Shown: one piece after another, positions 40,207-62,158 of the stretch
How the letters are laid out: the number at the start of each line of letters is the position of its first letter
Numbering within the stretch: position 1 is the stretch's first letter
Virus record (IMG/VR): IMGVR_UViG_3300017987_000047
Length of the DNA stretch: 64,000 nucleotides
Source: a virus
Lineage: Duplodnaviria > Heunggongvirae > Uroviricota > Caudoviricetes
Strand: one strand, 5' to 3'
Translations under genes and position numbers: made by a program
The notes under the pieces: generated by a model
The model's input: only the letters and a program-made list of their open reading frames with translations
Database searches by the model: none
What the model was told of the DNA's origin: nothing

Positions 40207-40429
40207 AACACACCGCTTGTCCTTTGAAGGAAGTCTGAAAGAGGTCTCTACCATACTGGAGGGGCTGCACGAGCTCATCTGCTCAACTACGGAAGCTAAA
40301 GTAGATGTTGTTGCAGGAAACAAAGGCACTTGGAAAGGAAAAGAAGCGGAAAAATTCTGGCTTGATTCGCATCTCAGGTACTTAGAGAAGATTAAGAAAA
40401 GTATTCGGGTAGAGGTTATCGATGATTAA
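40199..40429 (+). CDS. hypothetical protein
   Basis: 76 aa. Confidence 0.4.
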   Translation: MAKTHRLSFEGSLKEVSTILEGLHELICSTTEAKVDVVAGNKGTWKGKEAEKFWLDSHLRYLEKIKKSIRVEVIDD

Positions 40430-40727
40430 AGCCTTACTAACCCGACCGGAGCCTTCATTACGAATGTTGGCGAAAGATCTTTTAAAACGTGAGATCGATA
40501 ATTTTTGTGAAATTATTTGTCTTCAGGATGAGGGCTTTAACGCCTGGTCTTTCACCCTTCTTCATATTACAGAATCATGGTGCATGGCTAAAATTTCCTA
40601 TTCTCCTCGGAAAAATAGACCCTTCTATTTTCGATTTGAAAATACAAATCTATTCTTCGAAGATTCAGAAAGTCTTTCACAAATAATACGCCTTTGGGCA
40701 AGGAATCCGGATTCTTTTGATGTATAG
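40422..40727 (+). CDS. LTH-motif family protein, motif N-terminal (MIKALLTRPEPSLRMLAKDLL)
   Basis: 101 aa. Confidence 0.5.
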   Translation: MIKALLTRPEPSLRMLAKDLLKREIDNFCEIICLQDEGFNAWSFTLLHITESWCMAKISYSPRKNRPFYFRFENTNLFFEDSESLSQIIRLWARNPDSFDV

Positions 40728-41127
40728 AATAGTAATCTCTACCTACAATTTCACCTTTTGTAAGGAACTTAAATCTTTCCCAAAACGGGAAAATATTGTT
40801 TCTGCCTTATTAGGGTTGGCCGACGCCGCTTATACGGACTTATACAAAGGCAACCTGCTAGAGATTAAAATTGATTTTAAGAGAAAAGAGTTTAATCTTA
40901 TTGATAATGAAAAAGAGGGAGACCAGTTTAATATGCAACACTATTGGGAAATAGTTGAGAAGGGAAAGAAGGTTCCCGTACTGGCGCCAATTCTGAATTC
41001 GATCCGAAAACAGTTTCAAATGCTTCCCTTGAAAGCTTATTTCACACATAGTGCCCCCCTCTTTCGAATGATCGCAAAGGCAGACCTTAATTCTGATTTC
41101 ATTTGCGCAAAATCTAATGATTCTTAA
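40717..41127 (+). CDS. LTH-tail family protein (YFTHSAPLFRMIAKADLNSD)
   Basis: 136 aa. Confidence 0.5.
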   Translation: MMYRIVISTYNFTFCKELKSFPKRENIVSALLGLADAAYTDLYKGNLLEIKIDFKRKEFNLIDNEKEGDQFNMQHYWEIVEKGKKVPVLAPILNSIRKQFQMLPLKAYFTHSAPLFRMIAKADLNSDFICAKSNDS

Positions 41128-41458
41128 TCTAAAACAGGCACTAACAAATAGAAGTCTGCTGGTACGCCAGGCGGCAAAAAAGCTGAGTATGCTGTGCCCA
41201 GAAAAGCCTATTGCTTTCTATATACATTATCCTTCTCTTGAAATCGCGTTAAAAGAAGATAAGCATCGTTTCTTTTGTATTAAGAAAATGGATTCATCGT
41301 TTTACGACGTAATGGAAGTAAGAATGATTATTTATTGGGGATATGGAGCAGCGGGGCTTCCAGAACAAGGTAAATTCTTCTCAAGGGGCTGCAAAGATTT
41401 AACCGAACTTCTTTCTTTATTAGAAAAGTGGTATTATAAAGAAGGGAACTTTGCTTAA
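41117..41458 (+). CDS. LTH-motif family protein, motif N-terminal (ALTNRSLLVRQAAKKLSML)
   Basis: 113 aa. Confidence 0.5.
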   Translation: MILNLKQALTNRSLLVRQAAKKLSMLCPEKPIAFYIHYPSLEIALKEDKHRFFCIKKMDSSFYDVMEVRMIIYWGYGAAGLPEQGKFFSRGCKDLTELLSLLEKWYYKEGNFA

Positions 41459-41463
41459 ATTTT

Positions 41464-41781
41464 ATGAAAATAACTGTATTCAAACCTTTAGTTGTGCGCT
41501 CCGATGATTATATTGTTTTTGTAGAATACGCAGAAGGGTGGCCCGATTTATTTTTCCTAAAAAAAGGGAAGGTCCTCCACGATATACGGGATTACACTAT
41601 GTATCATGATATTATGTATCGCCCAAACGAAGTGCTTGGCGTAAAATATGCAGAAAGCTTTTTTCCTACAAACGGAACAAATTGTAGTGTTATCCCTGCG
41701 GAAGTATTATTAACTGAGAAAAAAGCAAGCTATCGAACATTTATGAAAAATCTTCTAGAATATAGCAAGGAAAGAAAATGA
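41464..41781 (+). CDS. LTH-tail family protein, degenerate (LLTEKKASYRTFMKNLLEYS)
   Basis: 105 aa. Confidence 0.4.
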   Translation: MKITVFKPLVVRSDDYIVFVEYAEGWPDLFFLKKGKVLHDIRDYTMYHDIMYRPNEVLGVKYAESFFPTNGTNCSVIPAEVLLTEKKASYRTFMKNLLEYSKERK

Positions 41782-41948
41782 AAGTTTCAATATCTTTATT
41801 TGAATTAGAACAAGCTATTCGAGAATACGTGAGAAAGAAAGGGATCCAAGTCGACGACAATGCAAAGGTCGAAATGGAATATACTAAAGATTATGATGAA
41901 ACTTATTTAGAAGGAGCTTCTATCCAAATTAAAGAGAAGCAAACTTAA
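41778..41948 (+). CDS. small hypothetical protein (56 aa)
   Basis: ATGA overlap with upstream stop; MKVSISLFELEQAIREYVRKKGIQ... Confidence 0.35.
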   Translation: MKVSISLFELEQAIREYVRKKGIQVDDNAKVEMEYTKDYDETYLEGASIQIKEKQT

Positions 41949-41951
41949 ATT

Positions 41952-42299
41952 ATGAATTTTTATCACACAACTGTGGACGGGCTACATTCCCGCTATAGCA
42001 TAATCCTTACTTCGTTACCGACAGTAAACGAGCTACTTCTCTGGGCAGCTGAAATCCTTATCGAGAAGGAAGATATCGGCAGAGTTTCTGGTAAGGCCGC
42101 ACTACATAATAATAAAGTATTTAGTAGAAAAGATTCTATTTCGATAAGTTTTTCAACTGAAAGAAACCGACTTTTCAATTTTCACGCGGCATCTTCAAAA
42201 ATTGACTTAGAGGATGTGAAAACTTTGGAGTCCTACCTAACTCACGCGGAACCTGTGATACGGCGGCTTGCAAAACAGAGGATGGAAATCCCTGAATGA
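41952..42299 (+). CDS. LTH-tail family protein (YLTHAEPVIRRLAKQRMEIPE)
   Basis: 115 aa. Confidence 0.55.
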   Translation: MNFYHTTVDGLHSRYSIILTSLPTVNELLLWAAEILIEKEDIGRVSGKAALHNNKVFSRKDSISISFSTERNRLFNFHAASSKIDLEDVKTLESYLTHAEPVIRRLAKQRMEIPE

Positions 42300-42342
42300 A
42301 ATGCTTCGTCGCCTTGTTTGAAACCAGTAGGAGCACGGCAAG

Positions 42343-60414: not shown

Positions 60415-60544
60415 TCTCAAATAAATCTCTATTCCTAAAGAACATACATATGTCTAGGGAGAGGTTTGAAGCACGGAATAAACTCTAAACAAAAATAGGT
60501 TACACCTTAACATAGAATTACGCTCGTAGTACCTTTTAGTTCGA

Positions 60545-60564
60545 TTATATATAGGGAATGCCCA
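60545..60564 (+). promoter_or_regulatory. promoter-like motif ATTATATATAGGGAATGCCC
   Basis: Variant of conserved motif upstream of 60623. Confidence 0.35.
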
Positions 60565-60622
60565 GCTCCTGGAAATATAAAAAGACCCCATCAGGGGAGC
60601 GCAAGGTTTAAGAGAATCGTAA

Positions 60623-60988
60623 ATGGCCCACATATTAATAATCAAGTATGATCCGAAGATAGATTGCGCAAAAACGGATGTCACCTATACTTTTAATGAG
60701 CCCATCACAGAAAAACAGTTTTTGATAGCAATTTTTGAGTATATAGAGAAACATATACAACACACAGAGACCGCAAAAAAAATATTTATAATGTATAACA
60801 GAGAACTAGAATTCAAACCTGAAGGAAAGGGACACGTCCAATTATGGTATGGTACAGATTTTAGAGCAATTAATCTTAGTTGGCAAGTAAGTCTCGCAGA
60901 AACTGGAGCATTGTCAAAAATAGAGACATATCTTACTTCAAGACATCCAGGGATAAGGTTAGAGGCTAAAAGATTTATCCCAGAATGA
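60623..60988 (+). CDS. LTH-tail family protein (YLTSRHPGIRLEAKRFIPE)
   Basis: 121 aa. Confidence 0.55.
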   Translation: MAHILIIKYDPKIDCAKTDVTYTFNEPITEKQFLIAIFEYIEKHIQHTETAKKIFIMYNRELEFKPEGKGHVQLWYGTDFRAINLSWQVSLAETGALSKIETYLTSRHPGIRLEAKRFIPE

Positions 60989-61022
60989 TATTTTTTTCCA
61001 TACTCCACCCAGACCCAAACAA

Positions 61023-61385
61023 ATGAAAGAAACAACCGTTTTTACAGTCGTTTGGTTATTCGAAGACGATCGAGATTGGGGATGTGCATACTATAAAGGA
61101 GCACTAGCCGAAGAGGCAGCAGTAGAAGCAATTATCAAAGAAGTTGAAAGTATACTTGATGCCGAAAACTCCTTACCCTATCTTAAAATAGAACTTGATA
61201 ATTTCAATAATACAGTTGTATTGCAGCAAACAAGTAATTCAAAGGTAAGACATATAGATTGGGTAATATCCCCAGTGAGTGAAGATGAGTTATTGGAAAC
61301 CAAAGGATTGAAGTCGCTGCTTACACATAAAAGAAAAGATATCAGAGCCATGGCAAAAGGGGAATTGTTCAAACAGAATAAATAA
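61023..61385 (+). CDS. LTH-tail family protein (LLTHKRKDIRAMAKGELFKQNK)
   Basis: 120 aa. Confidence 0.55.
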   Translation: MKETTVFTVVWLFEDDRDWGCAYYKGALAEEAAVEAIIKEVESILDAENSLPYLKIELDNFNNTVVLQQTSNSKVRHIDWVISPVSEDELLETKGLKSLLTHKRKDIRAMAKGELFKQNK

Positions 61386-61386
61386 A

Positions 61387-61839
61387 ATGTATATCATATT
61401 CACAGAAATTAAATATTGTACCCAGACAGAAGAACCCCTTAATTGCCACATCTGTATCAAAATTGATAAAGAACAGATAGCTAAGGTGCAGAAGCTAATA
61501 GGCTATGCCCAAGCCCAGAAAAGAGCAATACCCGAGATTAATAATATAGATTTGAATATCAAAGAGATTAATATACGTGAAATCGAAATAAATGCGTGGG
61601 ATGAAGGCGAAAAAGAAATCGCCGAAACATTAGTATATGATGAAGGTTTTATATATACAGAAAAGAACCCATTCCAAAGACTTATTGATGAGAGCGATTA
61701 TATCTTAAAAGATTACAGAGTACCTAAGATTAGATTAAAGTTTGATAAGGGCCAAGTAATAGTACAACACGAAGTAGAAATCGATGGAGATAAAAGGTAT
61801 ATTGATTTAGATTGGGAAAAGATAATAGCAAAAAAGTAA
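61387..61839 (+). CDS. hypothetical protein lacking the tail; may be fused to downstream tail-bearing ORF by +1 shift
   Basis: Ends GCA AAA AAG TAA A then ATG AAA GCA TAT CTA ACA in +1 frame. Confidence 0.45.
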   Translation: MYIIFTEIKYCTQTEEPLNCHICIKIDKEQIAKVQKLIGYAQAQKRAIPEINNIDLNIKEINIREIEINAWDEGEKEIAETLVYDEGFIYTEKNPFQRLIDESDYILKDYRVPKIRLKFDKGQVIVQHEVEIDGDKRYIDLDWEKIIAKK

Positions 61840-61840
61840 A

Positions 61841-62158
61841 ATGAAAGCATATCTAACAAATAAAATTCCTGAAATACGGAGGTTAGCAAAAAGACTTGCT
61901 AATGCAGGGGAAAAAGAAACATTAGTAGAGCTAGAAAAAGAGTTGAAGCGCATAATAAAAGAAAGTAAAGCCACACAGGCAAGCCTAAAGCAAAATCAAA
62001 AAATAGTTGAAGCTCAGATCACTGCGGCAATAGAAGGGTGCACTCTCAGCTCAACACAAGTTATAAACATTATGAGAAAAGAAATAGCTCTTCAATTGTT
62101 TTTGAAACAGTTAATAGAATATAGAGATTTACTTGAATCTATCATAAAATCCAAATGA
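61841..62158 (+). CDS. LTH-motif family protein, motif N-terminal (MKAYLTNKIPEIRRLAKRLANAG)
   Basis: 105 aa. Confidence 0.5.
   Translation: MKAYLTNKIPEIRRLAKRLANAGEKETLVELEKELKRIIKESKATQASLKQNQKIVEAQITAAIEGCTLSSTQVINIMRKEIALQLFLKQLIEYRDLLESIIKSK

Follow-up and report, generated by a model that had tools for sequence, protein, structure and literature searches.

The encapsulin cargo-loading peptides and the dockerin modules are docking tags of variable position, to which the element described here may be likened. The ankyrin-PRANC/F-box proteins of poxviruses form a multigene family whose bodies vary and whose terminal motif is conserved. Programmed +1 frameshift sites of the prfB type, which also have a bearing on this locus, combine a CUU-U-type re-pairing site with a Shine-Dalgarno (SD)-like stimulator. 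The encapsulation peptides of bacterial microcompartments are found at the N-terminus or at the C-terminus depending on the protein (PMC4594438). Here we describe a short protein module, referred to as the tag, from a stretch of 64,000 nucleotides (nt) of a Caudoviricetes virus (IMG/VR record IMGVR_UViG_3300017987_000047), the whole of which is called the window. The tag family has more than 50 copies and is apparently undescribed. Most copies are C-terminal, and in five genes the tag stands at the extreme N-terminus. The five open reading frames (ORFs) are probably genuine, separately initiated genes carrying a movable module, for which N-terminal placement is one normal architecture.

The N-tagged genes all lie on the + strand. 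They are 40422..40727 (101 amino acids (aa); module at about 40425-40484, MIKALLTRPEPSLRMLAKDLL; 25.7 bits with the tag hidden Markov model (HMM)), 41117..41458 (113 aa; about 41129-41188, LKQALTNRSLLVRQAAKKL; 20.8 bits), 48278..48610 (110 aa; about 48290-48349, LADILTNKDRSIRNFAKRIL; 23.2 bits), 56257..56604 (115 aa; about 56263-56322, IKKFLTDKHPEKRKLAKLII) and 61841..62158 (105 aa with an all-helical body; 61841-61900, MKAYLTNKIPEIRRLAKRLA; 29.4 bits). All five ORFs are present where the original prediction had put them, and its claim that they share one tag at the extreme N-terminus is confirmed by the ORFs themselves, by the position of the core leucine and by the HMM scores. From the ATG to the Leu of the 'LT' core the distance is 5, 8, 8, 6 and 4 residues, in coordinate order. 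The initiator Met is 0 to 4 residues ahead of position -4 of the module [LI]-[EK]-x-[FYL]-L-T-x-x-x-P-x-[IV]-R-x-x-A-K in every case, and in the 61841 gene the Met itself is position -4. The whole module is retained each time, down to the hydrophobic residue at -4 and the E or K at -3, and the scores of the N-terminal copies (20.8-29.4 bits) span the same range as those of C-terminal copies. The bodies of all five genes are singletons without detectable similarity to others in the window or in the fetched loci. A common 'B body' had been considered, as an alignment hinted at a C-terminal F...helix...W pattern; it was dropped when phmmer and BLAST on the tag-stripped bodies gave no mutual similarity.

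The tag is widespread in the window, with one copy per protein. The regular expression [LFIMVA]-T-x5-6-[RK]-xx-[AC]-[KRQ] has 42 matches across the three + strand frames and two across the minus frames, far more than chance would give; both of the latter lie in true C-tagged minus-strand genes. The tag HMM finds about 52 tags on the + strand and three in minus-strand genes. Around 43 genes are C-tagged, with the module 14-28 residues ahead of the stop, and five to seven genes carry an internal tag. Most genes of the array at 33083..62585 (+) are tagged. Between 40.2 and 62.6 kb there are 58 genes, including 32 that are C-tagged, five that are N-tagged and three with an internal tag, and roughly 55-70% of the genes at 40-62.6 kb are tagged. 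The original prediction had each N-tagged gene adjoining another family gene. This holds for three, whose upstream neighbours 40720..41127, 47932..48297 and 55905..56267 are tagged, a proportion that is expected from tag density alone. It does not hold for the other two, which follow 40199..40429 and 61387..61839, both tag-less and without detectable likeness to any family body.

The internal tags include a body-tag-body gene at 46696..47565 (+; LTDPNPYIRAIAR at about residue 156, with 133 aa after the tag), a gene at 52259..52921 (+; LTHRTCLREFAK, again with 133 aa after the tag; the start follows contig L001, and a longer ORF begins at 52178) and a gene at 33375..33833 (+; 44-63 aa after the tag). 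Further internal copies are found in 3590..4678 and 46021..46329. A paralog pair of about 300 aa each, 44369..45277 and 62958..63950 (+; BLASTP E 3e-20), has a degenerate internal tag near residues 96-115 (VEAFLTSKDRELATLVKQI and IAEFSTAEEPLTRRLIGRI). Minus-strand C-tagged genes at 205-522, 13871-14170 and 14237-14704 (e.g. AESLLTHENKTVRNFAKGYMNK) are distant from the main array. The tagged bodies are heterogeneous. A small alpha/beta body is common to some 21-23 genes, and many C-tagged genes have a body without detectable similarity to others in the window or fetched loci. The stop codons of 35 C-tagged genes are TAA (22), TGA (12) and TAG (1); TAG, rare as a stop, ends 40422..40727, 56257..56604 and 57013..57402. 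Stop-codon reassignment was considered and rejected, as all three stops end tagged genes at the usual distance and the standard code fits.

The consensus of the module, which is 21-25 residues long, is [LI]-[EK]-x-[FYL]-L-T-[HSDN]-x-x-P-x-[IVL]-R-x-h-A-K-x-x-[LI]. The T and R are invariant and the L, A and K almost so. Across 38 aligned copies the first and second codon positions of the conserved residues hold 1-2.3 bits of information and the third positions 0-0.5 bit. The codons of the tag Arg are mixed (CGN 25, AGR 13). In orthologs from diverged relatives identity is 52-76% in the tag versus 32-41% in the body. As judged from these sequences, selection on the tag acts at the protein level and not on the DNA. 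Hydrophobic residues are spaced at -4, -1, 0, 7, 10, 11 and 15, the pattern of two amphipathic helices.

Tagged genes also occur outside the window. Searched against 1.84 billion representative proteins, a profile of 21 paralogs retrieved only 48 at E <= 0.001. About half of these come from the window's own phage; the rest are on metagenome contigs, most of the checked ones being shorter than 2.5 kb. A scan of JGI metagenomes with a degenerate DNA pattern of the tag yielded more N-tagged genes (L096/L171, L117/L136, L104 and L085), and with those of L007 and L006 such genes are now known from at least four other related phage contig lineages. Their junctions with the preceding gene are 4-nt ATGA (-1) overlaps, same-frame stops or spacers of 12-70 nt. 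The contig L007, 43 kb long and with a GC content of 35%, comes from another huge phage. Its N-tagged genes start at 13229 (ATGA overlap with an unrelated gene), 18716 (ATGA overlap with a class-I aminoacyl-tRNA synthetase gene) and 19067 (12 nt after a same-frame stop), and a near-N-terminal tag lies about 27 residues past the Met of the gene at 4352, which comes after a tRNA gene. The L117/L136 gene, 4923..5213, encodes a tail-anchored membrane protein after a 50 nt spacer; the C-terminal end of this protein is hydrophobic and probably membrane-spanning. The L096/L171 gene, 422..1009, has a leucine-rich repeat (LRR)-like body and a 70 nt spacer. L104 is a further case, and L085 has two consecutive N-tagged genes. 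Weak LRR_4 matches are also seen a little past the downstream end of the window, in the genes L001 12076-12570 and 14027-14563.

Two proteins of relatives contain more than one tag. P0024 (L007 10001-10447) has two C-terminal tags 21 residues apart, and P0033 (L006 87-590) is built as tag-body-tag-body, with an N-terminal and an internal tag. Together they suggest a minimal repeat unit of 21 residues. In contig L003 a fragment of the 56257 ortholog lies upstream, not downstream, of the 55905 ortholog; because the order is swapped, the 56257-55905 pair is not a conserved unit. The degenerate tag pattern gave only isolated single matches and no arrays in 185,579 GTDB genomes, and the tag family is therefore not bacterial. 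Scans of IMG/VR found no relatives. Among deposited GenBank phages there was no megablast match for the window and no tblastn match for a family member. A tag-centred alignment gave no match in a word-indexed search.

Structure prediction agrees with the helical spacing. The C-tagged representative 41952..42299 (+) was modelled with AlphaFold2 together with 32 window paralogs. The model has a beta-beta-alpha-beta-beta-beta body followed by a hairpin (H92-97 / H101-112), with an overall predicted local distance difference test score (pLDDT) of 83. The tag is its most confident part (96-97) and lies within about 8 residues of the last strand (pLDDT 89-97), leaving no flexible linker. In the model of the 56257 protein the tag (H3-7 / H12-28) is the sole confident part, and pLDDT is 44 beyond it. 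The tag is thus predicted to be a helix-turn-helix hairpin in which a T-x-x-x-P turn links a short helix to a longer, amphipathic one.

The shape of this predicted hairpin, with the invariant Arg in its helix B, recalls HEAT repeats. The tag also matches HEAT/PBS repeats (Pfam HEAT, HEAT_2 and HEAT_PBS; alphaRep, PDB 6ft5/3ltj) in the register of helix B, the shared pattern being h-x-x-h-L-[polar]-[D/H]-x-[D]-[P]-x-[VI]-R-x-x-A-[A/K]-x-x-L. With hhalign the tag profile aligns YLTHESPIIRKVAKEY onto ALKDEDAWVRRAAADA of alphaRep A3 in the expected HEAT register; the alphaRep A3 sequence used is 100% identical to PDB 6ft5. Designed helical-repeat proteins were the best matches in a PDB profile search with the tag, and Pfam HEAT is the family most often, if weakly, matched by isolated tags. 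In a myxobacterial protein the tag HMM gives 23.8 bits to HLERFLTHRKPWIRNEAKKGL, which is the final repeat of a true HEAT_2 domain. Unlike HEAT repeats of about 31-40 aa, the tag unit has 21-25 aa, and unlike HEAT solenoid arrays it is single or at most doubled, as in P0024. Whole tagged proteins gave no Pfam match at the curated threshold, neither Pfam nor PHROG gave them a family match, and a structure-neighbour search returned nothing meaningful. The tag may be a solitary HEAT-type hairpin, one that is not filed as a member of the Pfam HEAT family.

The junctions of the five N-tagged genes with their predecessors are tight. The 40422 gene overlaps the tag-less ORF 40199..40429 (+; 76 aa, no detectable relation to the family) by 8 nt. 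The 41117, 48278 and 56257 genes overlap the C-tagged genes 40720..41127, 47932..48297 and 55905..56267 by 11, 20 and 11 nt. That each gene overlaps its predecessor, as originally predicted, is thus right for four; the 61841 gene starts one base past the stop at 61837-61839 of the tag-less ORF 61387..61839 (+; 150 aa), whose sole homolog is itself. The junction reads A AAA AAG TAA A ATG (61831..61843, +). The upstream ORF ends GCA AAA AAG TAA, and the +1 geometry at 61837-61843 (GCA AAA AAG TAA A ATG) is as it had been described. The same stop-A-ATG arrangement occurs five times (54940, 58037, 60076, 61387, 61841), four of them unrelated to N-tags, and overlaps of 1, 4, 8, 11, 13, 17 and 20 nt are routine in the array. 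In-frame stops are found 2-16 codons ahead of each N-tagged ATG. The overlapping junctions are this genome's ordinary, translationally coupled style.

Nor are the junctions artefacts. The 61813-61860 junction is identical in the independent ENA and Logan assemblies, and the N-tagged proteins and their upstream partners recur on 4-8 contigs in the same split state. Because of these two observations assembly error is excluded at the junctions.

The analysis supports N-terminal placement as ordinary domain-order variation, with no sign of ribosomal recoding. The module would act as an autonomous cassette, able to work wherever it stands, on bodies mostly unrelated to each other. Its N-terminal placement would have arisen by domain shuffling or boundary migration in a fast-evolving, tightly packed gene array. 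The hairpin, by analogy with known docking tags, may be a common handle by which many different small proteins dock, either with a single partner or with one another. Specificity would then come from the variable bodies, as in an expanded host-interaction family. A docking handle fits best because the strongly conserved hairpin belongs to a tandem expansion specific to this lineage, in which it is used regardless of position by more than 50 small proteins that diverge fast and are partly unrelated.

Several points weigh against this reading. The N-terminal copies differ from the C-terminal ones in the residue after Thr, which is His in 0/5 versus 21/37 copies and Asn in 3/5 versus 1/37, and this difference might be a functional distinction. 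Searches gave no strict orthologs for four of the five N-tagged genes or for the two tag-less upstream ORFs, and those with the 61387..61839, 61841 and 56257 proteins returned self-matches only. All five N-tagged genes are in the +1 frame relative to the gene upstream, and runs of six A precede the ATG of 61841 and 48278, so that low-level slippage is possible there. The hhalign match of the tag to alphaRep is statistically weak (P = 0.016, probability 2.8%), and Pfam HEAT matches just 3/42 isolated tags, at E >= 0.07. Docking, finally, is something we purely infer, and the high confidence of the tag and the lack of a long linker could equally fit a structural cap.

The tag as such a cap, a hairpin that stabilises small fast-diverging domains and whose N- or C-terminal position reflects different folds, is a serious alternative, if one that we regard as somewhat doubtful. 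The conserved hydrophobics at -4, -1, 0, 7, 10, 11 and 15 are of the core type and are joined by T, P and R capping residues, as in HEAT repeats; pLDDT in the model peaks at the tag, which follows the last strand without a flexible linker. Packing, however, would be an unusual reason to find one 21-residue sequence on many unrelated bodies of 70-360 aa, including membrane-anchored and LRR-like ones. In addition, R8 and K12 are (near-)invariant although they flank the hydrophobic face and are not within it.

The docking handle has parallels in the systems introduced above. Like the encapsulation peptides, the tag is a short amphipathic helical module found at either terminus of many otherwise unrelated proteins (PMC4594438). 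Encapsulation peptides differ in being single amphipathic helices, poorly conserved and placed on linkers, whereas the tag is a strongly conserved two-helix hairpin with no long linker. They also have a shell, whereas no shell, scaffold or receptor gene turned up here, the structural genes lying outside the window. With the poxvirus ankyrin-PRANC/F-box proteins the tagged genes share a lineage-specific tandem expansion and a fast-diverging body, and in both a short module would recruit a common machine. There is no relation in sequence or fold between them, the host of the phage is bacterial, and the tag is also N-terminal and internal.

A quite different history would make 40199+40422 and 61387+61841 the halves of former body-tag-body genes, split by a frameshift mutation just ahead of the tag, with both halves still made through coupled translation. 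The array contains fused models for such genes (46696..47565 and 52259..52921), and the tag-less upstream ORFs are exactly these two. Removing one base from the A6 run at 61831-61836 would turn the second pair back into a single ORF, and the sizes are similar (150+105 aa versus 289 aa). Searches, however, found no fused homolog of either pair, and the split is identical across all 4-8 contigs. Fission leaves the three cases with a tagged upstream gene unexplained, and stand-alone N-tagged genes are common in relatives. We consider this origin unlikely.

A more far-reaching version of docking, to which we give little credence, would have the tags serve as combinatorial assembly handles that stack on each other or on one phage or host scaffold. 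Dozens of small proteins would then be recruited to the capsid interior, to a compartment, or to a protease or chaperone. The N-tagged and C-tagged products of adjacent coupled cistrons might pair head-to-tail during synthesis, and in a minor variant low-level +1 slippage at 61831-61840 and 48267-48277 would yield covalent two-body proteins.

Slippage as the main route, namely a programmed +1 frameshift or slippage on A-runs that fuses the upstream gene to the tag and gives body-tag-body or body-tag-tag-body products, is highly improbable. Besides the shared +1 frame, it draws on the sequence at 61831-61840 (GCA AAA AAG TAA A), where tRNA-Lys on AAA may re-pair in +1 ahead of the stop at 61837, on the similar possibility at 48267-48277 (ATA AAA AAT G), on the two upstream ORFs that lack a tag, and on the natural double-tag protein P0024. 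The +1 relation and the stop-A-ATG arrangement are nevertheless the default of this genome: the +1 relation is found at 22/40 other tight junctions of the array, and five of five has a p of about 0.05. The five junctions share no common shift-prone motif. A6 runs that allow tRNA-Lys re-pairing are limited to 61831-61840 and 48267-48277, with none at 40422, 41117 or 56257, and A-rich leaders are general before starts, including those of the stand-alone N-tagged genes of relatives. The 100 nt downstream of the junctions fold no better than shuffled sequences (z -1.7 to +0.8), which means no stable RNA structure there, and no stimulatory SD-like element adjoins the five sites. The N-tagged genes of relatives show spacers, -1 overlaps and same-frame stops, and three of the five upstream genes are tagged already.

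The comparison with prfB-type sites points the same way. A stop in the A-site position after a run of Lys codons is found at 61837 only. The CUU-U-type re-pairing site and the adjacent SD-like stimulator are both missing, and the arrangement is conserved neither among the five junctions nor in relatives. An in-phase A_AAA_AAG heptamer, a classical -1 slippery sequence, lies at 61831-61837 (+) just before the stop of 61387..61839. A -1 shift there was considered as well and rejected: it only appends KKVK before stopping at a TGA that overlaps the next ATG, and it misses the frame of the tag. The original prediction had proposed conditional attachment of the tag by recoding, which these generic junctions, without a common motif or structure and with other geometries in relatives, speak against. 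It had also offered modular shuffling or slippage at module boundaries; the shuffling is supported, since the tag sits on mostly unrelated bodies at the C-terminus, at the N-terminus, internally and in tandem, and the slippage is not. In dense phage genomes, overlapping frame-shifted junctions do not in themselves point to recoding, even beside a repeated motif.

The notion that the tag works as DNA, marking cassette boundaries for recombination or regulation while its coding look is secondary, would suit its recurrence at gene ends all along the tandem array and is refuted by the near-uninformative third codon positions and the mixed synonymous codon families, the more so as the motif occurs in all three frames, always in that of the local gene and in minus-strand genes too, and no family of direct DNA repeats is needed as an explanation.

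Five separately initiated genes with a movable module thus remain our reading, and they belong to the genome of an uncultivated huge phage. The window lies within a contig of 335-384 kb. The exact 61841..62158 protein is found on eight public contigs, four of which are 0.2-1 Mb, including an ENA contig of 335,479 bp, and the 150-aa upstream protein (61387..61839) is on contigs of up to 384,251 bp. Of the five tRNA genes in the window, four form a cluster at 19.3-20.1 kb (19332-20106). The window also contains a gene for a CCA-adding enzyme, radical-SAM and phosphoesterase genes, and dozens of small co-oriented genes. The nearest CCA-adding enzyme (43.6% identity) is from a 309 kb Tunturiibacter phage. 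Promoter and terminator scans stayed at chance level. Downstream of the tRNA cluster two adjoining, slightly overlapping radical-SAM genes lie at 22501-24146 (+; Pfam E ~1e-11 each). A tRNA-like gene at 7042-7115 (+) scores 50.7 bits with the Rfam tRNA model, and ARAGORN gives it no anticodon; its anticodon arm apparently has a 6-bp stem and a 4-nt loop (TTCC). The product of the tag-less gene 57469-58035 (+), in the middle of the array, is a transglutaminase-like / CEP76-type cysteine peptidase, and its signal peptide (MRSIIVPIFLLLFCSC) looks like that of a lipoprotein.

In huge phages, small genes of obscure function stand together in large blocks, and the tagged block is organised with unusual clarity: a single hairpin of 21 residues is common to more than 50 otherwise diverse proteins and can be used at either terminus. 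Should it indeed be a docking handle, the hairpin would open one experimental route to what a quarter of this genome region does, and the module could itself serve as a portable tag.

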